A DNA stretch of 28,985 bases, from positions 1 to 28,985 of the IMG/VR virus record IMGVR_UViG_3300008120_000428; one strand, 5' to 3'. Positions 2 through 25,345 of the stretch are shown one piece after another (position 1 is the stretch's first letter; the number at the start of each line of letters is the position of its first letter). Under the pieces are notes generated by a model. The model saw nothing but the letters and a program-made list of their open reading frames with translations. It did no database searches and had not been told where the DNA came from. A program made the translations under genes and the position numbers. This DNA is from a virus. Taxonomy: Duplodnaviria; Caudoviricetes.

Positions 2-517
2 GGCAAATACAAACCAAAAAGCGATCGCTATATTCCCAGTGATGAAGAAATCGAAAGAATTTGGGAAAGCATCACTAATCCCAGTTGGCGCTGGATATTT
101 GGAATTTTGGCTACCTATGGCCTGCGACCCCATGAATTATTTCATCTTGATCTTTCTAAACTCCCAGTCATCAAGATTTCCGAGGATACCAAATCAGGGG
201 CGCGGTTGGTTTATCCCGTGCCGGCCCATTGGCTCGAAAAATTTGACCTTGCCAATGGCAACTTTCCCAACTTTGATCTAGAGGGGGAACTATCCAACAC
301 CTCTCTAGGCAATAAAATTTCCGTGGGATTCAAGCAAAGGAATCTCGGCGTGGTTCCTTACAGTCTCCGCGATGCTTACGCCGTTCGGTGCGCCGTCTTG
401 GGGATAGATTCCAGCATTGCCGCTAAGTGGATGGGTCACTCAATTGATATTCATGTCAAGCATTATCAGAAATATATTGATGAGATCGCGATGCACAGAA
501 TTTGGTCTAAGCTGTGA
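2..517 (+). CDS. int: Tyrosine recombinase/phage integrase, C-terminal catalytic domain (5' truncated by the window edge)
   Basis: Frame is open from position 2 (GKYKPKSDRYIPSDEEIERIW...). Catalytic motifs: TYGLRPHE (R), TKSG (K), PYSLRDAYA (R), WMGHS (H), KHYQKY (Y). Confidence 0.93.
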   Translation, partial: GKYKPKSDRYIPSDEEIERIWESITNPSWRWIFGILATYGLRPHELFHLDLSKLPVIKISEDTKSGARLVYPVPAHWLEKFDLANGNFPNFDLEGELSNTSLGNKISVGFKQRNLGVVPYSLRDAYAVRCAVLGIDSSIAAKWMGHSIDIHVKHYQKYIDEIAMHRIWSKL

Positions 518-3380: not shown

Positions 3381-5831
3381 ATGACCGCAGAAATTTTAAT
3401 CAGTGCCGCTATTAGCCTAGCCTTAACTGGTGTTTCGGCACTTTTGCAACCAAGTCGGAACGAAAAAGTACAACAGGGAAAAATAGATAATTTTACCGAG
3501 CCACGGGGTAGCTACGGTGACATTATTTCCGACGTTTGGGGATTGGGGAGAGTATCAGGGATTTTAATCTTTGGTACTTTTCCCCCAGAGGAAGTCGTCA
3601 GCGTCGAAACTGAAAGTCAAGGAAAAGGGCCGCGCAACTCCACCACTACCGAAACCTACACTTATTTTGGCAATTTTGCTTTTTTACTTTGCACTAAATC
3701 CACGGAAGTCAAGGAAATTCGCTTTAATTCCAAGCTAGTTTATAAGGATGGAGCCACTGATCCGATTATCAGTTCTAAGGGCGGCTCAATCCGAGTTTAC
3801 AATGGCAGCGACAATCAAACCGTAGATTCGCTTTTATCTGCTGAATTAGGCGATGCTGCCCTCGCTTACCGTGGCCGATCCTATATCGTTGGGGAAGGAA
3901 TTCCCCTAGAAGAATTTGGCAACTCCTATCCCCAGTGTTCCGCAATCGTCCGCAATGGTAGCCCTAAGCTATCTGAGGTAATCTCCGATATTTGCCTACA
4001 ATCAAGCGATTTAGTATCTGATGATATTGAGGTATCTGAATTAAATAACATCGACGTTCGCGGTTTTCAAACCAATTCTGAAGGAACTATCGCCGAAAAA
4101 CTGCAAGCCTTGCAGAAAATCCACTTTTTCGACTTAATCGACACTGGGGCGAAATTGCGATTCCAGACGCAATTTCGCCCTACTGCCAGTGCCTCTATTC
4201 CAGTGGGATTAATGGGAGCGCATGAAGAAAACAGCGAACGACCCCGACCGTGGCGAGAAAGCCGGCCAGACTTAACCCAGTTACCCTCACGGGTTGAGAT
4301 CAAGTTTTTAGACATCGATCGCAACCTAGAACCAAATGTTTCTCAATCCGTAATTTTTCCAGGGGCGGATCATACCCGCGTAGAAAGTATTGATTTTACC
4401 GGCGCTCTAAGCACTTCAGAAGCCAAAACAATAGCCGATCGCACCCTTTGGAGAATCTGGACAAGCGCACGAACTCAGGATTTTTCCTTACCCCCCAGAT
4501 ATGTCAACTTAGAAGCCGGGGACGTGATCGAGGTGGAATTGTACGGTAGCGAATCTCAACAATTGCAGATAGAATCTCTTTCCTACGGTGCTAACCATCT
4601 TCTACAGGCAAAAACCAAAGCCTACAATCCCCTAATCTACGGATGGTCCGAAACCAACAGCGCCCCCGACGACCCCGATTACTCCTCCCTTTCCCCCCTC
4701 CCCCCTACCCCCCCCAGAGATACCTCGCTCCCGATTGTTTCCCCCACAACTCTAAGAGTGCTAGATATTCCCCTCGCCTACCCCACCGATACCCCTGGGA
4801 TTTATGCCTTTGCCGATGGCGATGCTAATTGGAGAAATGCAACGCTTTATGTGTCGCTTGATTTAGGCGTGACCTACGAATTTGCCGGCACTTTTATCAC
4901 TCGCTCTACCTTTGGAACCGCTCAAACTATTTTCAACGGTACATCCGTAGATATCCGCGTCCCCTTCCACGCTTCCCTTGCCTCACTTTCTACGGCTTTA
5001 TTCCTGGAAGGGAAAAACCGCGCCTTGCTTGGCTCAGAAATTTTAGATTTTCAGAATGCCACTTTAACCGGCAATCAGGGAAGTGACAGAATTTACCAGC
5101 TAACCGCTCCTTTTACCCGTGGCACTCCCCAAGCCCACGCCGCTAACGAAAATTTTTATCTCCTCTCCGGGTACAAATTAAATCTCCCCGCCCAACGATC
5201 AGACATCGGAAAAACCTTCTACTTTAAAGCCCTATCCCCTGGCCAGACTCTAGCCGATGTTGCTCCAGTGACTTTACTTTTTCAGGGAAAAGCTTTTCAG
5301 GTGGCGATTAACGATTTCTCGCCTCGACAAGGGGCGATCGGAGCTACCGTGACAATCACGGGACTGGGATTTACCGGAGCCACGGCGGTCAGCTTTAATA
5401 ATGTCCCCGCTCAATTTACCGTGGTCAGCGATACTACCCTCACCGCAGTAGTAGCCATCGGAACCACTACGGGAAAAATCAGAGTCACAGCCCCGTTAGG
5501 AGTCGGGGTCAGTGCCGTTGACTTTACAATTGTTAACGATGCGTCGCTGCTATCAATTCAAGATGAGGGGAATTTAGTAGGTGCAAGACCGACCCTCAAC
5601 TTTATCGGTCCAAATGTTGCTGCCACTGATAACTTTGAGAGCGATCGAGTCGATATTACAATTAATCCCCCAACAATTCAGGATGAGGGGGTGGTAATTG
5701 CAGCTCGGCCTACCCTAAACTTTATCGGGACAAATGTTACGGCTGTTGATAATCCAGGGAGCGATCGAGTAGATGTTACTATAACTGGATTAACCAAAGA
5801 TGATTGGCGATTATTTTATTTTTGGGGATAA
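3381..5831 (+). CDS. Tail-tip/host-specificity protein (GTA g15-like, putative phage tail family) with C-terminal IPT/TIG domain and two 40-aa repeats
   Basis: SYGDIISDVWG, YTYFGNFAFLLC, IRVYNGSDNQTVDSLL, AYRGRSYIV, LEEFGNSYP, LPSRVEIKFLD, LEAGDVI, LDIPL, GKNRALLGSEILDF. IPT motif: INDFSPRQGAIGATVTITGLGF. Confidence 0.85.
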   Translation: MTAEILISAAISLALTGVSALLQPSRNEKVQQGKIDNFTEPRGSYGDIISDVWGLGRVSGILIFGTFPPEEVVSVETESQGKGPRNSTTTETYTYFGNFAFLLCTKSTEVKEIRFNSKLVYKDGATDPIISSKGGSIRVYNGSDNQTVDSLLSAELGDAALAYRGRSYIVGEGIPLEEFGNSYPQCSAIVRNGSPKLSEVISDICLQSSDLVSDDIEVSELNNIDVRGFQTNSEGTIAEKLQALQKIHFFDLIDTGAKLRFQTQFRPTASASIPVGLMGAHEENSERPRPWRESRPDLTQLPSRVEIKFLDIDRNLEPNVSQSVIFPGADHTRVESIDFTGALSTSEAKTIADRTLWRIWTSARTQDFSLPPRYVNLEAGDVIEVELYGSESQQLQIESLSYGANHLLQAKTKAYNPLIYGWSETNSAPDDPDYSSLSPLPPTPPRDTSLPIVSPTTLRVLDIPLAYPTDTPGIYAFADGDANWRNATLYVSLDLGVTYEFAGTFITRSTFGTAQTIFNGTSVDIRVPFHASLASLSTALFLEGKNRALLGSEILDFQNATLTGNQGSDRIYQLTAPFTRGTPQAHAANENFYLLSGYKLNLPAQRSDIGKTFYFKALSPGQTLADVAPVTLLFQGKAFQVAINDFSPRQGAIGATVTITGLGFTGATAVSFNNVPAQFTVVSDTTLTAVVAIGTTTGKIRVTAPLGVGVSAVDFTIVNDASLLSIQDEGNLVGARPTLNFIGPNVAATDNFESDRVDITINPPTIQDEGVVIAARPTLNFIGTNVTAVDNPGSDRVDVTITGLTKDDWRLFYFWG
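5554..5783 (+). repeat. Two tandem 120-bp-period coding repeats (IQDEG...ARPTLNFIG.NV...DN...DRVD.TI)
   Basis: CAATTCA(A/G)GATGAGGGG at 5554 and 5674; GCGATCGAGT at 5641 and 5761. Confidence 0.9.
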
Positions 5832-9006: not shown

Positions 9007-10005
9007 TTATAAACTAACCAAAGGCACACCCGAAAGATTAAAAATCACCCTTCCTGTTGCTTCTTCAAAAGCATCAAACCTAAAAGCGATTGCGTCTTCT
9101 CCAAATCTAACTAAAACTTCCCCCTCATTTTGCCAATTAAAATACTTAAAGCTAACAGCTTTTCCGCGACAAACGCGAAACAAACTGATTAAATATTCTA
9201 ATTCAGATTTTAACAGGCCTCGCTGTCCAATTTCCCAACTTCCCCGGTTTGTTGACCACTCGCTGATTCTCGTTTCATGCCCTGAAACTAATTTTTCGAT
9301 CCGAGTAGCAAACTCGTTGCCCCCAATTGAATCGTAATCGTACCCTAGATCAATTCGATGATTTAAAAATTCAGGAACTGAATCAAAAGCTAAAGGAATA
9401 GTAGGCAAAAGTTTGATCTCGGTTAAACTCAATCCCTCCCAATTAAAAAGCTTTCTTCCAGTACCCGGCTCACAAGCCTGAAACCGAAGATTAATCTTAT
9501 CAGACTCAAATCTAACCGGCACATCAAACTCCCCTGATACTCGAATCGTACCCGTTGGCACTGTAGCAAAAGTAATCACCCCAGTATTGTAATCTAACGA
9601 CCAGCCTTGACTAACCGCCACCTCATTAACAAAGACCGAAACCGCCCCATTAACAATCTTTAACAACGGTCGTTTAACACTACTCCCCACCACAGAATAC
9701 TCTTTAAACAATTGCGCTTGTTTATTGGCATTAAGCGTGATTACCGTATTAAAAGTATAATCCGACCAATCCTTGAATCTAAACCCTTCATAAGCCCCTT
9801 TTCTAGCGGCATGGAACGCTAAAAAATATTCTAACTCCTGATTTAAACAACCCTTTTGCCCAATATTAAATTTAAGCAAAGGATAAACCCAATTTACTGA
9901 TCGAGTTTCCGTACCAGAAAAAGTCTCCACAATTGCCGTGCTAGTGGTAATCGTGGCAGTTGTGCCGTAGGTAATTCCTAAATCTAATCTCTCTTCAACA
10001 AACAT
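9007..10005 (-). CDS. DUF2460 (TIGR02217; GTA g12/distal-tail-like) protein with tandemly duplicated domain; probable ATG at 10005
   Basis: FHAARKGAYEGFRFKDWSD, GEFDVPVRFESD; second copy LFRVCRGKAVSFKYFNW...VRFGED. Confidence 0.85.
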   Translation of the reverse strand: MFVEERLDLGITYGTTATITTSTAIVETFSGTETRSVNWVYPLLKFNIGQKGCLNQELEYFLAFHAARKGAYEGFRFKDWSDYTFNTVITLNANKQAQLFKEYSVVGSSVKRPLLKIVNGAVSVFVNEVAVSQGWSLDYNTGVITFATVPTGTIRVSGEFDVPVRFESDKINLRFQACEPGTGRKLFNWEGLSLTEIKLLPTIPLAFDSVPEFLNHRIDLGYDYDSIGGNEFATRIEKLVSGHETRISEWSTNRGSWEIGQRGLLKSELEYLISLFRVCRGKAVSFKYFNWQNEGEVLVRFGEDAIAFRFDAFEEATGRVIFNLSGVPLVSL

Positions 10006-10080
10006 AAAACTGTTATAATAAAAGAGTTTTATAGCGTTGCGGCTACGAAACACCTAACTTTGGTCTATTTGTTCTGTTTG

Positions 10081-10114: not shown

Positions 10115-10528
10115 CTATTCAACCCCTGGAAACCGAAAAGCCGCTTTAATTAAAGTTTGCCAATGATCATCTAAGCAGTGTTCCACACACTTTTTAGCCA
10201 TTCGGTGAGTGTGAATTAAAGTAAAATCCTCTCCCTTACAAGCCAAAATACCGCAATGCCGCCAGTCCTTGTCAGCAAACATTAAAATGTCCCCTGGTAA
10301 AGGATTTTCTATTGGTTGGCCGCACTGTTTAACAAATTCCTCAAACATCTCCACCCCTTCCGATCGCCGTCCATAACCGCTAATCTCAAACTGAGTTAAA
10401 TTTAATTCCCTCGCCACAATCAAAATCGTGCCAACACAGTCCACCCCCACCCCTTTAATCCGGCCTTGGTGAAGATAAGGAGTTCCAATAATTGATCGAG
10501 CGCTTGCTATTATTTCCTCACGAATCAT
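10115..10528 (-). CDS. Phage NlpC/P60 cell-wall peptidase / tail assembly protein (GTA g14-like)
   Basis: ARSIIGTPYLHQGR, GVDCVG (Cys), PGDILMF, RHCGIL (His), LIHTH. Confidence 0.92.
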   Translation of the reverse strand: MIREEIIASARSIIGTPYLHQGRIKGVGVDCVGTILIVARELNLTQFEISGYGRRSEGVEMFEEFVKQCGQPIENPLPGDILMFADKDWRHCGILACKGEDFTLIHTHRMAKKCVEHCLDDHWQTLIKAAFRFPGVE

Positions 10529-11394
10529 CCTTGATCCTCCATCGAGATATAAGCGTCTAATCCTGGGATTTTGTCTTCCCCCCCAAAATTTATCTGATTA
10601 TTGAAAGAGCGACAAGCGTTTAAAGTCTTCTGGCAACTAGGTCGCGCCCTAAAATTGTGACCCTGATCGGGGGTTACAGGCAGAGGTTCTGTCAGGAAAA
10701 AAGTATTTCCTAACTGTTTTATAATCCCCACCGTTAGCCCTTGATTAGGACCACTTAGCCAAATCAGGTTTCCCCCAGTAAACCTATCGCTATCACCTCC
10801 CCAACTGGTAAAAAAGCTTAATTCCGTTCGGCCATCGGTAACGGTCAAATTAGTCGCAAAACTATCCACGTTGACCGCGCACTTGGAATAGCCTTGATTT
10901 ACCCCAAAACTATAACGGCAATTGGGAGAAGTTGCCCGAGGAATTTTGGCATCAAGAAAGCGACTTAAACCCATTACCTCAGCCGTAAACTGTCCATCAG
11001 AATAACTAACCTTGCCCATAACTCGCACTGGCAAAAGTAGAAATTTAGGAGAATTACCACTTAAAGTCGTGGGCAAATCAAGATAGTTAATTAAAAAAAC
11101 TTGGATTTTTGCGTAATCCAAAAATCCAAGTCTTACATCCGTCAAACTAATTCCATTATCGCTAATTAATCCCGTTAATTCGACATTGTTCGACTGAAAA
11201 GACAAATCAGACGCGATCGCAGTTGGGGACAAACCATGAAGCGATTTATAGGTCACTCCATCAATGACCAAATCCTGATCCAATTCCGTCAACCCGAACA
11301 CTTCCCCGTCTCGGCGCTCAATCTTAGCGCACCGGATCACCGTGCGCGTTTCCGCCGTCAGCGCGGCTAAAAAAGCAGAGTTTAAATTTTTCAT
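10525..11394 (-). CDS. DUF2163/BR0599 tail hub protein (TIGR02218; GTA g13-like)
   Basis: IERRDGEVFGLTELDQDL, CRYSFG...C, FTGGNLIWLSGPNQG, CQKTLNACRSFNNQINFGG. Confidence 0.9.
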   Translation of the reverse strand: MKNLNSAFLAALTAETRTVIRCAKIERRDGEVFGLTELDQDLVIDGVTYKSLHGLSPTAIASDLSFQSNNVELTGLISDNGISLTDVRLGFLDYAKIQVFLINYLDLPTTLSGNSPKFLLLPVRVMGKVSYSDGQFTAEVMGLSRFLDAKIPRATSPNCRYSFGVNQGYSKCAVNVDSFATNLTVTDGRTELSFFTSWGGDSDRFTGGNLIWLSGPNQGLTVGIIKQLGNTFFLTEPLPVTPDQGHNFRARPSCQKTLNACRSFNNQINFGGEDKIPGLDAYISMEDQG

Positions 11395-11395
11395 C

Positions 11396-11631
11396 TGGCT
11401 TAAGCCCGGCTTAAATTCACATCAGCAAACTTGCTAAAACTTGATAAACTATGTATAAAAGATCAATTGCCGAAAGCCTTATCAAATCAGCGTAATCACG
11501 GAGAGGGTGGGATTTGAACCCACGTTAGGTGTGACCCTAAAGCAGATTTCGAGTCTAAATTTTTTTTTGAAAAGCTTATCTATCAAGGGTTTTAGCTTTT
11601 AAAAAATCAATTGGCTTAATTTTGGCTCACA
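11396..11631. other. attP-like site: tRNA-derived core flanked by paired arm-type repeats
   Basis: TGGCTTAAG (11396) and CGGCTTAAA (11407) on one side, TGGCTTAAT (11612) and TGGCTCACA (11623) on the other, each pair 11 bp apart. AAACT(T/A) repeats at 11427, 11437 and 11446. GAAA(G/A)(C/G)CTTATC at about 11472 and 11569. Confidence 0.75.
11499..11556 (-). tRNA. 3' half only of tRNA-Ser(CGA); att core, not a complete gene
   Basis: The minus strand reads AGA-CTCGAAA-TCTGC, long variable arm TTAGGG-TCAC-ACCTAA, T-arm GTGGG-TTCAAAT-CCCAC, then CCTCTCC-G. D-arm and 5' acceptor strand are absent. Confidence 0.88.
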
Positions 11632-14600
11632 CTCTAGATAAATATTCGGCAATTGTCCGCCCAATTTGTCGCTCGGAAGCGTTAAAGGCCGACGGGTTCG
11701 GAGCAGTCACATTGACCGTGACCGATCGATCGCCCCCATAATTTGATACTTGTGTAGTTTGCCCAAAATTATTAGGCAAGCGGCCAGCAGTAGGCATTCC
11801 ATAATTTAATCCAGCTAACAAACTTTCATTAATTCCGATTGTACCCCCATCAGCAAAATTACCAATTTTAGCTAAAGGATTTTTGCCTAATTGAGCCTTT
11901 AATCTTTGATATCTTTGAGCCTCTCCGGTGCGAAGACCAAGAATTTCTTCCCCTGGGGTAAATACCGCTAACACTCCCTGCGGTCCTTCTTTTCTTAAAG
12001 CATCTTGAATTCCCTTAAAAGGATTGCCCTGAGCGTTGCCGAAGGGCAAATTCGCAACTTTTGCGGATTTGACCGTATCCCCTTCCGCAAAATTAGGAAT
12101 TGTCCCCCCATCGGCAAAACCAGGAATCGGCAATTTTAACAGTCGGAATAGTCCCCCGATCGCCATCCGTGCCGCAATTTGAGCTAAGGATTTTAGAATT
12201 GATTGGGCCATATCGAGAAAAGCATCCCCGATTGACTTGGTTCCAGTCAGGGTATCTTCTAGAAAAGTGGCAAAAGCACCAGAGGCAGTGTCTCTGATTG
12301 TTTCCCCTAAATCTTTAAATTGCTGATCAATCTGTTCTAGATTTAATTCCAGCAAAATGCCCGCGTTTCTAATTAATTCGTCTCTTGTTTGTTCATCAGC
12401 CGGATCGGTGTAGCGTTGTCGAATAGCCTCTATTTCCTGCTCGTAGCGCAACAATTCTGCCCTAAAAGCTAATTCCTCTCGCATAGCCGCCGCTTCAAAG
12501 GGTTGGCCAGACCTTTCCAATCTTGTCGCCCGCGCTTCTGTTATTCGGCTTTCCATATCGAACAATTCTTGCTGCCGTTGCCAGCGTTGATTGTTGTAAT
12601 TATTTTCGATTCCTATCTCCCTTAACCGCGCCTGTTCTTTGGCTAAGTTAATTCTCAACTCTTGGTCAGCAAGATTGGGGTATTGCTTTTTAATTTCGAG
12701 AATTTCTTGTTCTAATTGTTTCTGGGATTGCAATAATTCCAGTTCGTTGATTTTGCCTAAATTACTCAAACTTTGAGCGATCGCTAACCGTTGGCTAATT
12801 AATTCAATTTCCTGAGTTAAGGATTTTGATTGGAATTGATACTCGATTTCTCTTTCTCTTAATCGTGCCTGTTCTTTAGCCAAAGCTAATCGTTTATCTC
12901 TATCCTCACCCTCAAAATCTTGGGCGATTTGTAATAAATCTAATTCTAATTGTTGCCGAGATTGCAATAAGGCGATCGCTCGTTCCTGCTCAAGATTATT
13001 TTGCTCTTGAGCGATCGACAATTCCGTGCTAATTCTTTCTAGATCAGATTGAATAGTTCTCAGTTTAGCTTGCGCTCTAACAAAGTTTTCAGCGTCAATT
13101 TGTCCCTCTTTTAACTGCCCCCTTAACTGCTGAATTTCGCTCAACATCCCTGAATAAGTGGCTTTATCCTGTTCAAGCCGCCCGATTAATCCCATTAGAA
13201 AACTAGCACTTTCTTTATCCACTTGATTAGTCGAAGTGCTTAGAATTTCTAAAATTGGCTTCATTTGCCCTAAGAGATTATTTAAGCCTTGAATGTTATC
13301 AGTGAGCCCTCTTTCTTGCTCAAATAATTGATTATCCAAGTCACGGAATTGATTTTCTACCCCGCGCAATTCGGTTTCTAATTGTGCGCTTTGAGTTTGG
13401 GGACTATACTGCGATCGAATGTCTTGCAGACTATTTTGAGCATCAATTACTGATTGGGTACTTTGTCGGATTGAATCGCCCATTTGTCGCAAGATGTCCT
13501 GTTGAGTTTGTTGTAACTCAATAAGAAACCCTTCAATCTCTTGACGAACACCAGCATCGCCTAAATTAACTTGATTTTCCTTGATTTGAATCAACCGATT
13601 AGTTAATCCTTCAGCAGCGGCATTATTAACGGTAGGAACTGGAGGATTGGGGACATCGGGTTGATTAGCACTAGCGACCTGACTCGCTTGCTGAAATTCC
13701 CGATAATACTGCATAACTATTCCGACATCTTGAACCGTGCCGCGAGCCATTTGATTATTTCTAACATTACCTGGCCCTGCTTTGTAAGCTGATAAGGCTA
13801 ACTCAATATTCCCCCCAAATCGCTCAAGCATTCTAGCAAGATATTTCGCTCCGCCAATTAAATTTTCAGCTACTTTATCAGGATTTACCCCTAATTCTCT
13901 AGCTGTACTACGCTTTAATTGCGCTATTCCCACCGCGCCAGCGGAACTCGTTAAAATCTGTCCAGGGCTTTTTTCTTGCCTAAAACCCGATTCCTTTCTA
14001 ACCAGAGCGGCAAATAATAATGGATCAATCCCAGCTTGTCTAGCGGCGCTTTCAATCAAAGAAGCAAAAGGAACATTCGGCATCCCTCGGCGCGGAGTAT
14101 TCCCTGGATTATTAATTTGCCCCGTTGATTTTCCATCAAGATCAACATAAAGTGATTTTGCTCCCGATTGAACTACCCAATTAGCTAACTTGGCAATTTG
14201 AGCGGGATCGGTGAAAACAAGACACCCCGCACTTCCTCTTTGTAAATCTTCTAAGTGAAAACCAATTTCTGATCTTCCCGTGGAAAAATTTGGTTCAACT
14301 CCGATCCATGCAGGGCCAACAGTTCCTAGTGGAATTTGACTGGGATTATAATTTGCCAACTGTCCAGAATTAAACTGTTCAAGATAACGAGAAGCATGAT
14401 TACGATTAATAGACCAACTGCCATCGGGAAGTGGAGTTTCACTGCCACGAATATTAGTTTTATCCGTGCCAATTGTGGACTGGGTTGAAGGACGACCAGT
14501 AACGCCTCCGATCACCGTATCTACTACTTTTCCGTCTTTGACAAGATCAAACTGAAGAATTTCTAATCCTTCTGGTGTTTTTTTTCCAGATCGCCTTACA

Positions 14601-17600
14601 AGAATATTTGATCCTCTTTGCAGATTTTGCGGCATTTGTTGCCGAGTATTCCCTGGAATATTCACCCCCCCGCGTTGAATAGTTCCTAAATTGGCAACTG
14701 AATCAAGGTGTAAAAATTGTAATTTTTCCCCAGTGGGTAAGGTCAGTTCTACCGTGTTACCGTTGCCTCTAGTGAAAAAGCTTCGGGCTGAAGATGCCGC
14801 GCCTCGAAATTCTAGAGGGGTTCCTTTGGGGAATCCAAAATCAAAAGCGTAATGCTCTCTAGAAGCACCCGGAACGGGAGGCCGGCGAATACCGTAGCCG
14901 CTAGTAATTTTGTTAAGTTGCTCGCTTAAAGGTTTGCCATCTACATAAACCTGTGAGAAAAACTCTCTTAAGCGAGCTTCGCTCATAATATTTCCCTTCG
15001 CATCCCGTCCACGAATATCAAGATGAGATCCTGACCCTATGCCTGTATCGCCTATTTTTCCTAAACTGAATCGCCCCGACGCTGACGGCTGACCACCACC
15101 CGACGGCTGACTACCTAACAAGCCCTGACGGAATAACTCTAAAGCTTCCGTGGCTCCCCCCAAATTGCGAGTGAAATTCTCTAGCTCAACCTGTAAGCCG
15201 CGCCGCTCCCCAACAAAGTTAATCCTCGCTGACCGTTGCCCTAACAACTGCTCGACAATTCCCGAAGCCCGGTCAAAAATCCCTTGAATTTGTCCAACCA
15301 GTCCATTAACAAAGGTATTAGACCCCGGCACTAAGGCACGCTGTAATCTGTTCTTAATATCGGTGTATTTCAACCTGTTGAGAATTCGATCGACCTCAAC
15401 AATCGCTTCATCAATTCGTTGGGTAAGGTTAAAGAAGAATTCCTCAACCGAATTATTCAGGTCTGTGATTCCCGATCGCGTGCTGGAAATTGACTGCTCT
15501 AAATTTTCCTCAGCTTGTCCTAATTCGTCTTGTAGCCTTAATTGTTCCTTGAGAGTATTAAGGACAGCCGTTTCCTGTTGGGAGCGGTTCTCTGCAATTA
15601 AGCGGTCAATGGTGGCCGTGTTTTCAAGATTAACCCCCATATCCTCTGCCTGTTGCCGAAGTTCCGTTAGCACGTCAGCAAAGTCAGGTTTAGTTAAAAT
15701 TTCGTTCACCGCTCCCAACTGGTCACGCAGAAAAACTATCCTTGCCTCTAAGGTATTTTGTTCAATTTCCTCAAGCCCTAAGTCCCGAACTTGACTCCCT
15801 ACTCCCGCCGCCCTTGCCCGACGGATAAACTGGACTCTGGCATTGGTTGCGTTGCGTTGTAGAGTCTCGTTGAAATACGCCGCCTGTTCGTTAAGATTTC
15901 GTAGAGCCAAAGTCAGCGCGTTGACGCTTTTTTGCAAATTTGACATTAAATCGTCAAACGCAGTCGAGGTCTTATCAATATCTTTTAATCTATGCTCTAA
16001 TTGCGCTCTAAGTGCTTTTTCTGCCTCTTCTGTAATTCCCCGTCTCGCTACTAATTCATCTAAGGTTTTTAGCTGTTTTTCAATTCTAGCCTTGCTGTTT
16101 TGCAAGGCTGTTTCAAAATTAGCTGTAACATCAAGCCTTTTATCTCTTTCTTCTATAAGTTTTTGCTGTTCTTTAATTGCCGCTTCATAGCGTTTTTTAT
16201 CCCCCGCAGGGATGTTAAATTGTCTAGATCGAGCTTTAGCTAGTTCTTTGTCAAGCTCACGAATTTCTTTAATAGTTTTTTCAACATTAAATTGTTCCAT
16301 AAGATTACTATCTACCTGAGATAGCAACCCTCCTACATTTTCCTGAAAATTAGCAAACTCTTGCTGTCCTAGAGTTGTTAACATAGGTTCAAAACCTAAA
16401 GCTTTATCAATGTTGTTTAAAGACTGCCTAGCACCCTCTAAATTAAAACCAGTATCCCATCCTAAAATATTCCAGTTTCGAGAGGTTACGATTTCTTCTT
16501 CGGTTTTAGGTAACTCTTTAGGTATAGTTTGAGTTGCTTTGCCCACATTGTCTAAAGCTTCTTTTAATCGATTAGCTTCCTTAGTTGCTTCTTCAATATC
16601 TTTTTTCAACTCAGGGAACGCATTATTAGAAAGAACATAAATCGCCGCTCCCACAGCATCAAAAGCGAGAGTAAGTAAAGCAAATTGCCCTAAGAATATT
16701 AACAGTTCTTTGTAAATAAGTTTAAAAGCTGCCACCGCTATTCTAGCCAATACAGATAGAACAGCTTGTACAGATTTCAAACCTCCTAAAAATTTTGCTA
16801 ACTCTATAGATATTTTAGCAAAATCAATAAATAAAGCCGCCGAGAAAATACCGAGGTAACGAACGACAATCGGAATAATTTCGCTGATTTTTTCAATTGC
16901 CGCCGCAAAAAAGTTAAAGAAGGTTTTTGCGGGAGCTATCCACCCCTCAAAACTTCTTTGTAGATTAACGATCGCATTTTGGAACCGAGTTAAAGCTTGA
17001 GCCGTTGTCTCGGTTCCCCCCGCAATTTTGGCATTTTCCGCCTCATAAAGAGCCGCAACTTTGGGGAACACATCCTCAGCCATTAACAAGCCGTCGCCCA
17101 TCATTTCACTTAATTGCGCTGGATTAACCCCCATCGATCGAGCTACTGTAGATTCAAAAGCCAAACCTGGGATCTCGCCCAGCTGGCCACGCACTTCCTC
17201 GGCGGACAATTTTCGCTTTGAGATCGCCTGGTTAATTGCCGCAAACATCCGCCCCTGTTCTTCATTAGATAAGCCGCGACGAGCGGCCGTTTCTTGAAAA
17301 ACACTAAATATTCGATCCGCTTGTTTTCCTTGCAATACAGTGTATTTTGTTACTGCCAAAAAGCCTGTATAAGCCTCCTCAGCCGTTTTTAATTCAACCC
17401 CTAATCTTTGCGCTTCCTCTCGCACAAAAGCTAATCCTTTAGCTCCGGCTTCGGCACTTCCAGTCACCGAAGTTAACGCTAATCGCATTGACTCTAATTC
17501 CAAAACAGCGCCAAAAGAAGCATCACCTAACGCAGTAATTTGACCGACTAAAAGCTCAAAAATATTATTTAAGGCAACCCCCGCCGCTAGTCCTAAAATT

Positions 17601-20197
17601 AAATCTTTCAATTCCGCAAAAATCGGGAAATCTTGTTCAATTTGGGCAACAAAATCATTAAAGCCCTGTTGAGCATTACCAATAAAAGCAGAAAAACTAT
17701 TATCAACTGCGGTTAACGCTTGATCAATAGGTGTATTGATCGCTGATTGTATTGCTTGAACTCCAAGATTAAATCCTTCTACAACTTTCTGACCAATTTC
17801 CTCAAAAACCCTTGACGGTGACTGAATACCTAAACGTTTTTCAGCTTCTTTAATCACCTGTTCGCTTAAAGTTTCGGCAGCGATGCCCGCTTCCCCTATT
17901 TTACTTTCAATCCCTTGAACAAACCCATCGCCTACGCTTTCCCCCATTTCTAACGCACGATCCGCTTCACGCGCAAGATTTGTTAACCCCGTTTTAGTGC
18001 GTTTATTGCCAATAGTTTGCCGTTGTATTTTCTCAACAGCTTTTCTTTCTTTTTCTAATTGTTTAGCTAAATCACTATCAGGTTCAATCTCTTGAATCAA
18101 ATCATCGTAAATCAGCTTAAGGGTTTCCGTAGCACCGACAATAGTTTCCCCAACCTCAAAAGCTAAATCTTTATTGCCATCAGCAATAGCTTCTTTAAAC
18201 TCTTTAACTTGTTCTTTAATTTCGCTAAAAGATTGTTGAGTAACTTTTAGCTGGTCTTCTCGGTTTAATCCTTTAAACTTTTTATACTGCTGAGAAGATT
18301 GGATGTGGTTTAAAGTGTGCTGCTTGTTAGATGTTTTTAAAGAATCTAAATAAGCAACATATTTAGCATAAAGACTATTATTTATTAATTCTTTAGGTTC
18401 TTGTTTTTTAGGTTGGTTGCCTGGCTTTTTAGACCCAAACATATCACCTATAAGCTTAGCGATCAATCTACCAGCCTTAACTAACCAGCCAAGAATAGGA
18501 ATATTTTCTAAGCTATCCCAAAAACTTCCTATTGCTTCTTTAACCTCTTCTTCGCCTTCACCTAAACCCTGAACAAATCCAGCCACTGACTGTTGAGCCA
18601 TTCTTCTAAATTTTTTAGACGGTGACTGAATTTCTAAATCGTTTTTAGCTTTTTCAATAACTGAATCAACTAATTCCTCAGTAACATCAATTGCGTCAGG
18701 TTTATTGCCCTGTACTCCTTGAACAAAACCTTCTATAGTGTCTTTCCCAAGTTTGTCAAAAGCACTGCCAGATTTTTTACCTAAACCGAATAACTTGCCA
18801 AGTAGCTTTTTAATTGAAGCAATCATGCTTTCGCTTGCATTCTTGCCAGACTCCTCAAGCTTTACTTGTTCAGCTTCAAAAGCTACGGCAAAACCTTTAT
18901 CTCTGACAAATATCGAATCATAACCCTTTTTCTGTAAAAGCTTAGTTTTATCTCTGTGATACTGTTGATATTTTTCCCCTGTGGGATCCTCTTGAGAAAA
19001 AGGATCAATCAATTCGCCTCTTTTTTGTGCGTGTTTAATGAAGTTTTGATAGCCTTTTTCGGTAACGATAAAAGGATTTTTGACATTCAATCTTGCCTTT
19101 AATACCTCTGGACGACGATGCTCCGAAGCGTAGCTTTCAGCTTCGCCAAGTTTATCAGTCAAGTAAAATCCCTTGCCATAAATGGCATCTTGAACTCGAT
19201 CCACGTCAATCCCTTGCTGTCGAATTGATTTGGCTCCTGCTTTACTTGTTCCGTGATAGAAATCCATATTAAGGATTTCTTGTATTTTCTTATTAATAGC
19301 CGATTTGGCAGAATCAAGGGATTTTTCAATCCCAATCTCAAACCCTTCCCCAGAACTTTCACCTAACTTCTCAAATTCCTTAGACGGCGAAGCAATACCT
19401 AATCTTTTTTTCGCTCCCTCAATCGCTGATTCTGCTAACTCTTTTCCGCTATTTCTTACCTTATTTAACTTTTCTTCAATCCCTTTAATAAACCCTTCGC
19501 TGGTTTCCGTGCCAACCAGGTGCATTAAACCAGTTTTAGCCGATCCTGCTTTTTTAGGCTGTCCTTTTAAAACTTCGTTTTGAATGCTAGTTAAATATCT
19601 TTGATTTGCCTGAATTGATTTAGTGCCACTAAGATCAGACGGGACAGCTTCCAGTAAATCCTTGTAAACTTTTCGGGTTGACTCTACTAACGCTAAAACG
19701 TTTTCACCAATTTCTAAAACAAGCTGACTATCCCCTTCTTTAATTGCTTTTCTAAATTCTTTGATTTGTTTGACGACATCAGCTTTATAACTTCCAATCG
19801 CTTCTTTTCGCTCAGGAATCGTTAGATTTTTGTAATCAGGAATAATGCCCTTAACTGTTTCTTCTGCCTGTTTTTGAGCATCTTGAACCAATTGATCAAG
19901 GTAAACAATGTATTGATCAATTAAAGTTACTGGATTGTCAGTCAACCCTGCTGTTTTCTTGGCAAAGTCATAGGTTTTAGTGCGAATATTATCAAAAAAG
20001 CCTAAGAAACCATTACCAATGCCCACCTGATTGTTTAGGCGCGATCGCGAAAGGATCGTATTTATCCAAAGTTTGATTAATCGTTCCCGCAACCCTTCCA
20101 GTAACAGGAACCTTAACCCCACGGGCAAACACATCAGTCCCGGCCCGACTAGCCAAAAAGGGAGCCACTTGATCCCTGACCGTGCCATCGAGAACAC
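11627..20197 (-). CDS. Tape-measure protein, main (C-terminal) part: SPS repeats, ART, tape-measure domain, permuted M23, L,D-transpeptidase-like, SLT and coiled coils
   Basis: LALTSVTGSAEAGAKGLAFVREEAQRLG and AEEVRGQLGE (tape measure); RKESGF/GAVGIAQL/ALSAYKAGPG (SLT); FADGG C-terminal motifs. The first ~58 codons are probably not real (see the frameshift finding). Confidence 0.9.
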   Translation of the reverse strand: MFSMARSGIKWLPFWLVGPGLMCLPVGLRFLLLEGLRERLIKLWINTILSRSRLNNQVGIGNGFLGFFDNIRTKTYDFAKKTAGLTDNPVTLIDQYIVYLDQLVQDAQKQAEETVKGIIPDYKNLTIPERKEAIGSYKADVVKQIKEFRKAIKEGDSQLVLEIGENVLALVESTRKVYKDLLEAVPSDLSGTKSIQANQRYLTSIQNEVLKGQPKKAGSAKTGLMHLVGTETSEGFIKGIEEKLNKVRNSGKELAESAIEGAKKRLGIASPSKEFEKLGESSGEGFEIGIEKSLDSAKSAINKKIQEILNMDFYHGTSKAGAKSIRQQGIDVDRVQDAIYGKGFYLTDKLGEAESYASEHRRPEVLKARLNVKNPFIVTEKGYQNFIKHAQKRGELIDPFSQEDPTGEKYQQYHRDKTKLLQKKGYDSIFVRDKGFAVAFEAEQVKLEESGKNASESMIASIKKLLGKLFGLGKKSGSAFDKLGKDTIEGFVQGVQGNKPDAIDVTEELVDSVIEKAKNDLEIQSPSKKFRRMAQQSVAGFVQGLGEGEEEVKEAIGSFWDSLENIPILGWLVKAGRLIAKLIGDMFGSKKPGNQPKKQEPKELINNSLYAKYVAYLDSLKTSNKQHTLNHIQSSQQYKKFKGLNREDQLKVTQQSFSEIKEQVKEFKEAIADGNKDLAFEVGETIVGATETLKLIYDDLIQEIEPDSDLAKQLEKERKAVEKIQRQTIGNKRTKTGLTNLAREADRALEMGESVGDGFVQGIESKIGEAGIAAETLSEQVIKEAEKRLGIQSPSRVFEEIGQKVVEGFNLGVQAIQSAINTPIDQALTAVDNSFSAFIGNAQQGFNDFVAQIEQDFPIFAELKDLILGLAAGVALNNIFELLVGQITALGDASFGAVLELESMRLALTSVTGSAEAGAKGLAFVREEAQRLGVELKTAEEAYTGFLAVTKYTVLQGKQADRIFSVFQETAARRGLSNEEQGRMFAAINQAISKRKLSAEEVRGQLGEIPGLAFESTVARSMGVNPAQLSEMMGDGLLMAEDVFPKVAALYEAENAKIAGGTETTAQALTRFQNAIVNLQRSFEGWIAPAKTFFNFFAAAIEKISEIIPIVVRYLGIFSAALFIDFAKISIELAKFLGGLKSVQAVLSVLARIAVAAFKLIYKELLIFLGQFALLTLAFDAVGAAIYVLSNNAFPELKKDIEEATKEANRLKEALDNVGKATQTIPKELPKTEEEIVTSRNWNILGWDTGFNLEGARQSLNNIDKALGFEPMLTTLGQQEFANFQENVGGLLSQVDSNLMEQFNVEKTIKEIRELDKELAKARSRQFNIPAGDKKRYEAAIKEQQKLIEERDKRLDVTANFETALQNSKARIEKQLKTLDELVARRGITEEAEKALRAQLEHRLKDIDKTSTAFDDLMSNLQKSVNALTLALRNLNEQAAYFNETLQRNATNARVQFIRRARAAGVGSQVRDLGLEEIEQNTLEARIVFLRDQLGAVNEILTKPDFADVLTELRQQAEDMGVNLENTATIDRLIAENRSQQETAVLNTLKEQLRLQDELGQAEENLEQSISSTRSGITDLNNSVEEFFFNLTQRIDEAIVEVDRILNRLKYTDIKNRLQRALVPGSNTFVNGLVGQIQGIFDRASGIVEQLLGQRSARINFVGERRGLQVELENFTRNLGGATEALELFRQGLLGSQPSGGGQPSASGRFSLGKIGDTGIGSGSHLDIRGRDAKGNIMSEARLREFFSQVYVDGKPLSEQLNKITSGYGIRRPPVPGASREHYAFDFGFPKGTPLEFRGAASSARSFFTRGNGNTVELTLPTGEKLQFLHLDSVANLGTIQRGGVNIPGNTRQQMPQNLQRGSNILVRRSGKKTPEGLEILQFDLVKDGKVVDTVIGGVTGRPSTQSTIGTDKTNIRGSETPLPDGSWSINRNHASRYLEQFNSGQLANYNPSQIPLGTVGPAWIGVEPNFSTGRSEIGFHLEDLQRGSAGCLVFTDPAQIAKLANWVVQSGAKSLYVDLDGKSTGQINNPGNTPRRGMPNVPFASLIESAARQAGIDPLLFAALVRKESGFRQEKSPGQILTSSAGAVGIAQLKRSTARELGVNPDKVAENLIGGAKYLARMLERFGGNIELALSAYKAGPGNVRNNQMARGTVQDVGIVMQYYREFQQASQVASANQPDVPNPPVPTVNNAAAEGLTNRLIQIKENQVNLGDAGVRQEIEGFLIELQQTQQDILRQMGDSIRQSTQSVIDAQNSLQDIRSQYSPQTQSAQLETELRGVENQFRDLDNQLFEQERGLTDNIQGLNNLLGQMKPILEILSTSTNQVDKESASFLMGLIGRLEQDKATYSGMLSEIQQLRGQLKEGQIDAENFVRAQAKLRTIQSDLERISTELSIAQEQNNLEQERAIALLQSRQQLELDLLQIAQDFEGEDRDKRLALAKEQARLREREIEYQFQSKSLTQEIELISQRLAIAQSLSNLGKINELELLQSQKQLEQEILEIKKQYPNLADQELRINLAKEQARLREIGIENNYNNQRWQRQQELFDMESRITEARATRLERSGQPFEAAAMREELAFRAELLRYEQEIEAIRQRYTDPADEQTRDELIRNAGILLELNLEQIDQQFKDLGETIRDTASGAFATFLEDTLTGTKSIGDAFLDMAQSILKSLAQIAARMAIGGLFRLLKLPIPGFADGGTIPNFAEGDTVKSAKVANLPFGNAQGNPFKGIQDALRKEGPQGVLAVFTPGEEILGLRTGEAQRYQRLKAQLGKNPLAKIGNFADGGTIGINESLLAGLNYGMPTAGRLPNNFGQTTQVSNYGGDRSVTVNVTAPNPSAFNASERQIGRTIAEYLSRV

Positions 20198-23100
20198 CTT
20201 GCTTGATTACCTGATCCGCAATAAAATTTCTGACCTCAGCCGGCAACCCCGGCGCAATCATCCCCGCTACTCCCCGTCCGCTTGCCTTAGCAGTATCCTG
20301 AATCGCTCCCATGCCCAACCCAGTAAATCGATCGCCCAAATATTCCCCTAGCAGACCCTCCCCACCCAAAGCCTGACCAACGCCCGTTAACGCTTCCCGA
20401 ACTGGCATTAACGCGGTCTTGGTTTGGGCATCTAAGAAAGATAGTCCCATGTTCCCCAAAAATCCTTGGGCTGCCACAGATTTCCCCACGGCGTGCAAGG
20501 GAGCGGATAAAATCTTGTTTGCTGCCGATGGTAAATGGGGAATAGCCAAATCAATATTAGGATCAGCTACTGTTTTGATAGTGCGATTAATCCCGTCGCC
20601 GATCGCCGTTTCTAACCACGATGGCATCAAAGCACCAATCAATTCATTGGCTCCCGTGGCTTCCATCACATCATTAATGCCTCGGCCAACCACCGACCCC
20701 GTGACATACCCGACGGCGGTTTTCCGAAGCGTATTAGGTAAAAACTTTCTATTATTGCCAAATTGCTGCCAGAATTCAGCCGTAGCCGGGGACATTCCTT
20801 GTTGCTGAAGCGATCGGAAATTAGAAACATCTTGGAATCCCGTTTCCGCAATCAAGCGCCCGGCCATCCCTCCTAGATATCCCCCAACTGGATCCCCGGT
20901 TAAGCCGCGCCCCAGCATTGCCCCCGGAATAGTCCCCAACAGACCGGCTAAAGTCCGATTAATCTCTTTGCCTAAATTAGTCCGAAGCTTTTCCCAAAAA
21001 AGGATTAATCGTCTTTGAGTTTTGTTGACAAATCCCTGATTTAACTGTTCAACGTCAACCCAGAAACCAGGCTCAATTTCTATCTCGGTTTGAGCCTTTT
21101 CAGCATCTAAAACCCTAGCTAAGGATTCCCTTAGCGTTTTTTGGTAAGTATCAAGTTGTCCCGCCAGCGGGGCAAGTCCTCCTCCTCTAGGAAGATCGGC
21201 TTGAGTATCCACATTGTTGCCGGCACTAGGAGGAAGTTCCACAGGTCCCACACGAACAACGTCAGGACTGCGATCGGGAGGCTGATTTCCGCTTCCGTCA
21301 GGTCTTCCCGGAGTATCCTGCTTAATCGGAACTTGATTAGGTTCATTTGGTTTTGTCTCTTTTTCTATTTCTTTATTAAGACTAGCAGCAGATTTTTGAA
21401 TTTTATTTAAAACTTTTCTTGCATTAATAAACTGAAAACTATAAGCATCTAATTCTTCAGAAAAAACCTTAGCTGTTTCTTCGGCAGACAATTTGCGTCC
21501 TAAAGTTTTTTCTATTGATTCAACGCTGCCTTGAGCTTGATACTCTAGCAAAGGAATTGCTTTTTGATTAAGATTTCCTTGCGTAGCCTGACTATTTAAC
21601 TCTTCTGTGTTTATTAATTTTTTAACGTATTTTTGAACACCGTGCCGAATTTCGTGGATTAAAGTCTCGACAACATCAGCATCAATTTCTCCCTTTGCAA
21701 GTTTATCAGCAATTTTTTTAGAAAGATAAATTTTATTATTCCTTATTTCAGCATTTACGCCTTCTTTTTGAATAATTTCATTAGATAACTGCGGCAATTT
21801 ATCAGGAGTTACCCCCGATAACTCACCCACTTGTTGAGCAATTTCTTGATAATTAACTTGCGCTACATTTTTAGTATCTTTAAATTTTAAATATTGTTCT
21901 GGAAATGCTAACGCTAAAGATGCTTGTAATTGATTGTAAGCAATAATTAGATCGTCTAATCCTTCTAAATTAAATTCAGAAATTATATTTTTAGCTAAAG
22001 CAATCTCCTCTAAAACAGTATCCGCTAATACATTTTTAGCTTTTTTGGGCAAAGAACTAGCAAGTTGTTTAGAGTTTAATAAAGTTTTAATATGATTGTT
22101 AAAAGTTGACTGCAAAGCAGTAGGAGTAACCATCTCAGGAAGATTTTTTAAAACGTCTGGATGAAAAAGATACTCTTTAAAATAGTGATTATCTAAATTA
22201 GCAATTTGACCAATATTTTCTAAATTTTGATTTTTATTTTTGCTTTGCGCCAAAAACTGTAACAATAAAGATTTTCTAACTTTATCGTTTTTTCCTAAAA
22301 AACCTTGATAATTTTTTTGATCAAAGCCGATTCCAATATCAGGAGTACCTGTGCCAATTCCTTTAACATCAGTAATTCCTGTCTTTTCTAAAATCGCGAT
22401 CGCTTCTTCAACAATTGTGCCACCTAAAGATTCCCCAATTAACTGGATTTTAGCGGTTGGGTCTTGTTTTTTTGCAGCAATAACTTTAGACGCTAATTTA
22501 ACTGCGTCTGGATTGTAACCGCGAATAAGATAATTTTGTAAATATTTATTATATTGCTCTAGCAAAAAATTATAAATATCTTCTGGTTTGCTACTAGGAT
22601 CAGAATTTGGATTGTTAACAGGAATAACATTAACGTTGTCTCTCCCAAAAAAATTCTTAATATTTTTTGCCGTGTTAACACTGCCACGGCCAGCGTTACC
22701 TCCAGCGCCTCCTACAGCAAAAACGTTAATCTTATTGGGATCAACTTTAACTGTTTCAGCTTTAGCCATTTCTTGAGCTTGTTTTACAGACTCGTTTTCA
22801 AGTCGTTCCTTGCGCCTAGCTTTTATCGTATTTTTAATTGCTTGCACTGGATCAGTGACAGAGGTTCCCGCAAATTTTCCAGCTTTAGCGAACGTAAACC
22901 CCGTTTTTTTTCCAAAACTTTGCTCAAATCCTTTAGCAATTTGCGCCCCAAATTGAAATAAAATTCCAGCGCCAAGAATCTGCAAGGGATTTCCTAACCC
23001 ACCCCCAATCTTAATTTTTTTAATCTCAGACCCTAAAGCTTTAGCCAACTCCTGAGAATCTGTCTTACTCTGTTTTTCCCTGCTTAATCCCCCCTTAGTC

Positions 23101-23378
23101 TCGACAATCACCGATCGAGCAGACAACTGGACAAATCTAGTTTCTAGCCTGACATTTTTAAGTTCTAGTCGATCAGGAAATCCGAAATTATTGCGGGTTT
23201 GAGAGCGACTTCTCAACCCTTCTACCATCCGATCTAAAGCCGTTAACTGTAATCGCTGGTCATCGCGAATTACTCGGAAAATAGTTAACTGCTTATCGGC
23301 TTCTCTATCTACCGTTTCCCGCAACTTCTCAACCGAATTAACAATCGCCTGAAATCCTGAATAATCCCGAACTGCCAT
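20013..23378 (-). CDS. Tape-measure locus, N-terminal part with alpha/beta-hydrolase (GESLG) and zincin (HEIRH) domains
   Basis: Starts 5 nt after the GT chaperone stop, the canonical tape-measure position. GESLG at 22422-22436; HEIRH at 21642-21656. Confidence 0.8.
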   Translation of the reverse strand: MAVRDYSGFQAIVNSVEKLRETVDREADKQLTIFRVIRDDQRLQLTALDRMVEGLRSRSQTRNNFGFPDRLELKNVRLETRFVQLSARSVIVETKGGLSREKQSKTDSQELAKALGSEIKKIKIGGGLGNPLQILGAGILFQFGAQIAKGFEQSFGKKTGFTFAKAGKFAGTSVTDPVQAIKNTIKARRKERLENESVKQAQEMAKAETVKVDPNKINVFAVGGAGGNAGRGSVNTAKNIKNFFGRDNVNVIPVNNPNSDPSSKPEDIYNFLLEQYNKYLQNYLIRGYNPDAVKLASKVIAAKKQDPTAKIQLIGESLGGTIVEEAIAILEKTGITDVKGIGTGTPDIGIGFDQKNYQGFLGKNDKVRKSLLLQFLAQSKNKNQNLENIGQIANLDNHYFKEYLFHPDVLKNLPEMVTPTALQSTFNNHIKTLLNSKQLASSLPKKAKNVLADTVLEEIALAKNIISEFNLEGLDDLIIAYNQLQASLALAFPEQYLKFKDTKNVAQVNYQEIAQQVGELSGVTPDKLPQLSNEIIQKEGVNAEIRNNKIYLSKKIADKLAKGEIDADVVETLIHEIRHGVQKYVKKLINTEELNSQATQGNLNQKAIPLLEYQAQGSVESIEKTLGRKLSAEETAKVFSEELDAYSFQFINARKVLNKIQKSAASLNKEIEKETKPNEPNQVPIKQDTPGRPDGSGNQPPDRSPDVVRVGPVELPPSAGNNVDTQADLPRGGGLAPLAGQLDTYQKTLRESLARVLDAEKAQTEIEIEPGFWVDVEQLNQGFVNKTQRRLILFWEKLRTNLGKEINRTLAGLLGTIPGAMLGRGLTGDPVGGYLGGMAGRLIAETGFQDVSNFRSLQQQGMSPATAEFWQQFGNNRKFLPNTLRKTAVGYVTGSVVGRGINDVMEATGANELIGALMPSWLETAIGDGINRTIKTVADPNIDLAIPHLPSAANKILSAPLHAVGKSVAAQGFLGNMGLSFLDAQTKTALMPVREALTGVGQALGGEGLLGEYLGDRFTGLGMGAIQDTAKASGRGVAGMIAPGLPAEVRNFIADQVIKQGVLDGTVRDQVAPFLASRAGTDVFARGVKVPVTGRVAGTINQTLDKYDPFAIAPKQSGGHW

Positions 23379-24892: not shown

Positions 24893-25345
24893 CTAAAAAT
24901 CATCCTCGCTGCTATGGCTATCTATCACAAAAGGTGATTTACCGTTAACACTGCGATCATGATTAATTAAGTCAATCAATTTGTCCAGTTTTTGCTGATG
25001 TTTCGTGACCCGTACCGAAACACGGCGCACGTCTTCCTTAGCTGTCCCCGCCGTTTTATCAATTTGTTCTCTAAGTTCGTTTAGACTAAACTTAATAAGC
25101 TCAAAATCTTTGCTTAATAACTCAATTTTATTTTGATTATCTTTTTTAATATCCTCAACGCTGTTTTGCAAGCGAATTAAAAAAATAATCCCTCCCAGCA
25201 AAAACACCCAATTATTCTCTAAAAATTTACCAATCTTAAAACTATCTTCTGCCTGCGTAGTGACTAAATGCCCCTGTTGTCCACTAGGCGCATGATACAC
25301 AGGAGGAGTCACCGTTAACCCTGTAGCAAGCAAAAAACTAATCAT
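24893..25345 (-). CDS. Membrane protein with one TM segment plus coiled coil (possibly holin-like)
   Basis: NNWVFLLGGIIFLIRL hydrophobic segment followed by a heptad-rich region. Confidence 0.5.
   Translation of the reverse strand: MISFLLATGLTVTPPVYHAPSGQQGHLVTTQAEDSFKIGKFLENNWVFLLGGIIFLIRLQNSVEDIKKDNQNKIELLSKDFELIKFSLNELREQIDKTAGTAKEDVRRVSVRVTKHQQKLDKLIDLINHDRSVNGKSPFVIDSHSSEDDF

Follow-up and report, generated by a model that had tools for sequence, protein, structure and literature searches.

A tRNA-Ser(CGA) attachment site lying between tail genes, kilobases away from its integrase, in tailed phages of cyanobacteria

The anticodon loop of a tRNA gene is the expected crossover point of tyrosine integrases that target tRNAs. 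In the mycobacteriophage Giles the integrase gene (gene 29) is located in the late-expressed left part of the genome, between the tail chaperone gene (17) and the endolysin gene (31), and in phage P2 the integrase is under split-operon control, a situation akin to the parting of genes across an att site. The integrase of Giles resides among late genes (PMC5705681), while in the Cluster J mycobacteriophage Omega (PMC3706429) and Rhodococcus phage Jace (PMC13313380) attP lies beside int and is furnished with paired arm sites. Integration parts the genes of Tn916 from their promoter and so silences them, with a terminator providing insulation (PMC11658703). Phages BPs, Halo and Weirdo19ES have integration-dependent immunity with attP inside the repressor gene (PMC7194413, PMC5559632). 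In unicellular cyanobacteria lysogeny appears to be rare (PMC6157547), and in a bloom study of Lake Erie 0 of 15,461 viral units were integrated in Microcystis genomes (PMC12542629).

Here we describe an attachment site in a linear virus record of 28,985 nt, the whole of which is referred to as the window (Table 1). On its minus strand the window encodes portal, capsid, tube, chaperone, tape-measure (TMP), DUF2163, NlpC and DUF2460 proteins. Between the TMP stop at 11627 and the DUF2163 start at 11394 there is a gap of 232 nt (11395-11626), and a preliminary description of this DNA had proposed that the gap holds the 3′ half of tRNA-Ser(CGA), beginning at the anticodon stem. This is borne out, as the segment starts within the anticodon stem, continues to the acceptor end and matches the full tRNA of prophage locus L005 at 59/59 nt. 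The preliminary description had also considered that a matching host tRNA-Ser(CGA) might be lacking; the core is found at 100% identity in 15 of 89 Microcystaceae genomes and at 98% in 2 further ones. No whole tRNA was detected in the window by ARAGORN, and a search of cultured phages and plasmids with the core gave generic tRNA matches only. The same attP form is present in G001, G002, L052 and L053 (93-97% identity), and in G001/L052 the anticodon loop is exactly where identity to the host sets in. Rfam matches in the gap (a plastid 3′UTR model and tmRNA, both under the gathering score) were rejected, as they reflect the T-arm of the tRNA.

Table 1. Features of the attachment site and neighboring genes in the window, and copies of the repeated element in the Pannus prophage
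Feature	Position	Strand	Remarks
Tyrosine integrase, 3′ half	2..517	+	phrog_1, E 5e-11; 92% to the full 353-aa G001 integrase
Megatron-like tail-tip gene	3381..5831	+	PF13550, PF23666; NF048004 under cut-off; co-oriented with int
DUF2460 distal tail protein	9007..10053	-	profile matches
NlpC/P60-type tail peptidase	10115..10528	-	under NCBIfam cut-off
DUF2163 baseplate hub gene	10525..11394	-	PF09931, PF09356, TIGR02218; first gene behind attL in lysogen (L051)
Long-arm pair of arm-type sites	11396..11414	-	+139 and +150 from loop; ends 1 nt ahead of DUF2163 ATG
AAACT repeats, three	11427, 11437, 11446 (11427..11450)	+	spaced 10 and 9 nt; candidate directionality-factor sites
attP common core	11498..11556	-	59-nt 3′ part of tRNA-Ser(CGA), identical to host tRNA
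Anticodon loop, 7 nt	11547..11553	-	likely strand-exchange overlap
Imperfect inverted repeat, 7-nt spacer	11570..11593	.	by eye; candidate site for a DNA-bending protein
Short-arm pair of arm-type sites	11612..11630	-	-77 and -66 from loop; outer site overlaps TMP stop codon
Tape-measure gene (TMP)	11627..23378	-	becomes attR end of prophage; two frames here
TGTCCGAAWTTAC copies	G005:C18:30254, 37493, 53279, 55422, 56003, 60499	sense	repeated element

The core is flanked by pairs of YGGCTYA repeats (11396/11407 and 11612/11623), 11 bp apart in each pair, and as 8-mers such pairs occur in only two places in the 28,985 nt, both of them flanking the core. Arms were searched for blindly, by seeking two 11-bp-spaced pairs, with 60 dinucleotide shuffles as the control. 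In the window, G001 and G002 the search returned TTAAGCCA at -77/-66 and +139/+150 from the loop, in the prophage of G003 it returned TTAGGGAA at -78/-67 and +139/+150, and in the prophage of Pannus brasiliensis TTAGGCAA at -78/-67 and +141/+152; shuffles equalling the arm pairs numbered 0/60 in each of the five cases. The offsets are thus kept across three diverged lineages despite three different motifs. The flanking pairs and the roughly 10-bp-spaced AAACT repeats of the preliminary description are both present in the sequence. By their position the paired repeats would be arm-type sites, presumably bound by the integrase. The excisionase (Xis) sites of phage lambda are the background for regarding the AAACT repeats, which are kept in the G001/G002 types, as candidate sites of a directionality factor. 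An imperfect inverted repeat is located 24-26 nt ahead of the loop in all three lineages. The attP takes up the whole interval between the TMP stop codon and the DUF2163 start codon, and at the level of sequence the identification of the 232-nt gap as the attP of a tyrosine integrase is confirmed. A second partial copy of the tRNA (G044:C1:3790031-3790072) and an arm-like motif beyond attR in G003 (L006:10059-10120) were also noticed and suggest other relics at this tRNA.

The attP is ordinary for its family in core and arms and unusual in its position. Like those of Omega and Jace, its core is the 3′ part of a tRNA from the anticodon loop onward, with direct-repeat arm pairs on both sides; however, in these two phages attP lies about 100 bp from int or right beside it, whereas in the window and its relatives the site lies between tail genes and int is inside the prophage. 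The distance from the int stop to the core is 11.0 kb in the window, approximately 8.7 kb in G001, 8.0 kb in G002, 7.8 kb in G003 and 7.4 kb in Pannus, so that in none of the five records is attP adjacent to int. For the window, where the 3′ part of int ends at 517, the figure is that from the anticodon loop and agrees with the approximately 11 kb originally reported. The preliminary description had left room for another attP beside the integrase; near int, neither a further tRNA piece nor an arm pair was found in G001-G003. Integration of Giles should likewise cut a late region, but its integration cassette sits in the late region as a unit, while the att site of the window lies in the tail region without int. 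Tn916 is similar in that integration parts co-directional genes across att, and its insulating terminator near the end resembles a hairpin of the Pannus prophage; it is, however, a conjugative element for which the coupling was shown by experiment, whereas in the window such coupling would be putative and Pannus has a likely internal promoter. In BPs, Halo and Weirdo19ES, too, the position of attP changes expression after integration. Yet in these phages the repressor gene is interrupted by attP, next to an arm-less integrase, while the attP of the window is intergenic and has arm pairs. Moreover, the attP of the window is far from both repressor and int, with the repressor-like genes beyond int, and the layout of BPs-type immunity is therefore absent. 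A search of largely open-access articles returned no description of an attP this far from int within tail genes or of this phage group. The nearest precedents are Tn916 and Giles.

Integrated relatives reveal both ends of the element. The G003 prophage, in a Microcystis-like host, measures 39,015 nt from loop to loop. At its attL a full tRNA-Ser(CGA) (2079-2167) is followed by four small genes and DUF2163-NlpC-DUF2460, and then by megatron and int on the other strand; at its attR the TMP stop (41041) is followed by the 3′ copy of the tRNA (41124-41182). Outside these ends are the host genes for UbiA prenyltransferase, rhodanese and HrcA. A contig of Pannus brasiliensis CCIBt3594 (G005:C18) is laid out alike over 39,980 nt, and behind its attL are genes for an M23 lysin and a holin-like protein; in these two complete prophages the integrase is 7.4-7.8 kb inside the element. 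Metagenome contig L051 agrees with the window at 11,029/11,029 nt and has a full tRNA in place of the TMP, as expected of attL; its 67 nt of host DNA beyond the core could, taken alone, reflect a choice made in assembly, and L051 is therefore supporting rather than decisive. Co-directional genes flank att on both sides and are separated by integration. The proposal that integration cuts between TMP and the distal tail genes thus holds in full for G003 and Pannus and for the attL side in L051, and where the preliminary description had allowed for prophages integrated elsewhere with the gap intact, the integrated relatives are cut in the gap. The DUF2163 profile matched 2/89 genomes of the family (Pannus and one weak match) and 8/401 of the order. 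No tRNA piece was found ahead of DUF2163 in the distant G114, G121, G126, G214, G261 and G415.

Several smaller features were seen in these relatives. In G003 a DdrB-like gene (PF12747; L005:2327-2704) lies behind attL on the opposite strand, and G001 and G002 have a homologue among their early genes. G002 (24896-25309) has neither the 5′ portion of int nor the repressor-like genes, yet its attP is kept at 97%; it is possibly a lytic deletion variant, or there is an assembly gap. The first 11 nt of G001 (1-11) equal its last 11 nt, just ahead of the small terminase gene and with attP intact, as expected by eye for a cos-ended genome. In L045 (G246:C10, 1279-1803) a truncated, distant DUF2163 gene points head-on at a complete tRNA-Ser(CGA); this is likely what remains of a decayed element that lies at this tRNA in reverse orientation.

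The 17 genomes that match the core (15 at 100% and 2 at 98%) belong to one genus. The gene beside their tRNA-Ser(CGA) is 89-92% identical to the UbiA flank protein of G003 in 4/4 empty-site genomes checked, and since this flank protein clusters with Microcystis-named proteins, the host of the window phage is likely to be Microcystis. Short contigs matching the window at 11908-11942, 14759-14793 and 10022-10053 were seen flanked by CRISPR-like repeats (runs X6, X17 and X19), and the repeat beside the first two of these occurs in CRISPR-like arrays in G045 and G058 (2/4 genomes of the genus). Such arrays in the genus fit the assignment of the host to Microcystis.

The integrases match Pfam PF00589 weakly or not at all, and their catalytic residues R224, K246, R305, H328 and Y337 are invariant in 18/18 alignment rows. 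Integrase matches at E≤1e-20 numbered 0 in 17/17 genomes of the likely host genus, in a search run without a positive control, and a class-wide integrase search, which matched 257/401 genomes, was too broad. A T-arm scan of 80 viral integrase loci located a tRNA piece at most 1 kb from int in 21 and 7.8-8.7 kb away in 3; as the scan missed the tRNA-Thr sites of L085 and L091, 21/80 is an undercount and not a base rate. In the window, direct repeats surround the small genes behind int (518-1557), with self-matches at 416-620 and 1464-1557 and shared upstream motifs.

How the site came to lie among tail genes can be approached by comparison with relatives in which it does not. In a midpoint-rooted tree of 22 integrases, the three integrases with a displaced att and that of L083 form a clade (100/98) without resolution inside it. 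In L083 the int stop is directly followed by a tRNA-Ser(CGA) attP, the arms of which are at -78/-67 and +139/+150. The cyanobacterial relatives G832, G833, G834 and G835 share the integrase family and arm geometry with the window, and G832-G834 also the order of int, megatron and a convergent DUF2460 block, but in G832-G835 attP is directly behind the int stop. Thus G832 and G833, with the gene order of the window, carry a tRNA-Thr attP between int and megatron, and G834 has arm pairs in the same place. At the other position, TMP abuts DUF2163 without att in 8/11 viral DUF2163 loci, which are 8/8 of the sister-clade loci, and in G833 TMP runs straight into a holin-like gene, 9 nt apart. Because related integrases keep attP right behind int and TMP abuts DUF2163 in the sister clade, it is likely that an att cassette of approximately 230 nt was transferred from a place just after the int stop to one just after the TMP stop, for which two nested inversions would account. 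The abutment in 8/8 sister loci suggests that TMP and DUF2163 may ancestrally have been co-transcribed. No exact arm-site remnant occurs between int and megatron in 4/4 displaced records, and no intermediate of the relocation was seen. In the sister clade (L009-L016) attP was not located, and an integrase fragment was present in 1/4 records searched.

According to the preliminary description the tail region was one operon, and this has to be abandoned: the megatron tail-tip gene is on the strand opposite to the other tail genes in all relatives examined, so that it needs separate transcription in either state of the phage. In G003 and Pannus it was observed directly behind the int stop (L005:6520-9759; L017:14157-16331). 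In Pannus a 13-mer, TGTCCGAAWTTAC, has six copies in the 5.2-Mb genome, all of them in the prophage and on the sense strand. Five of the six lie 40-61 nt ahead of the head-tail joining, capsid, tube, megatron and lysin genes, the copy ahead of the lysin gene being in the long arm just inside attL. G832 has seven copies of an element of its own, one of them 21 nt ahead of DUF2163, and G833 has five. Judged by their positions, these elements are likely late promoters. As a side observation, in Pannus and in G832 alike one copy of the respective element falls within the protease-capsid gene, and the phage-specific elements likely point to a multi-promoter late system with a putative activator. 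A de novo motif search, which recovered the Pannus element in the same test, found no repeated upstream element above the shuffles in the window, G001, G002 or G003. One sigma-70-like site was found in the region, in the short arm, against 0.5 expected, which is chance level.

Taken as a whole, the account that we moderately favor is that the phage integrates through this attP into tRNA-Ser(CGA) of a likely Microcystis host, which cuts TMP from the distal tail genes, and that the cut is tolerated through a late promoter of the distal unit's own. The integrase, made in the middle of the prophage, would bind the arm pairs and exchange strands at the anticodon loop, and the tRNA would be restored with the 3′ copy of the phage. 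Late genes would be read from several promoters, as the repeated elements suggest for Pannus, G832 and G833; the cut would be tolerated because the distal tail unit probably has its own late promoter, and the split of the tail genes would represent a rearrangement and not a strict switch. In the window lineage this promoter is postulated by analogy with relatives whose integrases are 55-57% identical, and on that footing it is somewhat probable.

Three other explanations bear on this account. The tRNA piece in the tail region could be an artefact of assembly across a 59-nt repeat common to phage and host. In 3/4 DNA runs the assembly graphs lead off into host sequence at 11498 and 11556, in keeping with the limits of the core; the unitigs of these runs stop at the core, and among the pieces listed none bridges it. 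Unitig depths are unable to tell free phage from lysogen or to rank genes. The window contig also has a private deletion of 128 nt (window:20013-20197), which splits TMP into frames of 1121 and 2856 aa. This 1121-aa form is on one contig only and P0043 (99.75% identical) reads through, so that the deletion is likely an error of assembly or an isolated mutant; the att site is unaffected by it. As the attP form recurs in four further records, single contigs of G003 and the named Pannus genome carry both junctions together with the adjoining host genes, and the arm geometry is kept across lineages, the artefact is largely refuted, and we regard it as exceedingly improbable. More serious is an excision gate of the Tn916 kind, in which DUF2163-NlpC-DUF2460 of the window lineage would be read only through the re-formed attP and complete tails would be made after excision only. 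It agrees with the long arms of the window, G001, G002 and G003, which have no late element, with the lack of a stable hairpin in the short (z -0.08) and long (z 0.09) arm of the window, with the exact fit of attP between stop and start codon and with the close junctions of TMP in the sister loci and G833. It also has the precedent of Tn916 (PMC11658703), and an RNA-library contig (X17 record 19; 1/4 runs) spans the TMP end, short arm and core, although this contig cannot give the strand or exclude carry-over of DNA. On the other side are the late element inside attL in Pannus and that ahead of DUF2163 in G832, the G003 hairpin with a T-run after TMP (z -2.07, 9/200 shuffles) together with the oppositely directed gene behind attL, and megatron, which needs a second late unit anyway. 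An excision gate is, on balance, rather unlikely.

The remaining explanation is that the tRNA promoter of the host reads through into DUF2163 and NlpC in the lysogen, so that tail-tip proteins would be made in the prophage state, as the preliminary description had ventured. In L051 DUF2163 begins 103 nt behind the tRNA end on the same strand, with no stable hairpin between, and contigs of the RNA-library runs X15 and X16 (one study; relatives at 90-95%) extend from within the core across the long arm as far as NlpC. These contigs, however, may hold DNA and cannot give strand, level, a single transcript or an origin from attP as opposed to attL. In Pannus the tRNA is followed after 10 nt by a hairpin of 17 pairs (z -5.18, 0/200 shuffles), which would block read-through into the lysin gene, and because of this hairpin and the opposing gene in G003 read-through is not a kept trait; we consider it improbable, if less so than an artefact. 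In Pannus the likely late-promoter element inside attL and the hairpin speak against a strict excision gate as well as against read-through from the tRNA.

The locus shows that the attP of a phage can come to lie among tail genes, apart from its integrase, here in phages of two cyanobacterial genera, and the resulting prophages end in TMP on one side and start with the hub gene on the other. Prophage end-calling beside int, or the expectation of an unbroken tail module, would likely mis-trim such elements. Two Microcystaceae prophages now have both ends mapped. With the Pannus prophage in a named strain, induction, excision and late transcription are directly testable, and relatives with attP in either place offer a natural comparison for asking if the position of att couples excision to virion assembly. 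Were the excision gate to prove true, it would constitute a morphogenesis lock, a Tn916-style split operon applied to virion assembly, under which a prophage induced in place would build heads and tubes and no working tail until excised.

Some further features of the tail genes deserve mention. The closest cultured DUF2163 protein is 31% identical. A membrane gene of 48-62 aa (L052:1027-1170), holin-like by inference, lies between att and DUF2163 in G001, G002, G003 and Pannus and is missing in the window (11395) and L051. The TMPs of the phage group have 2,500-4,200 aa with variable inserts, and that of the window carries an ART-PolyVal ADP-ribosyltransferase-like domain and an SLT transglycosylase domain (window:11627-20197, aa 311-446 and 2047-2153 of the ORF).
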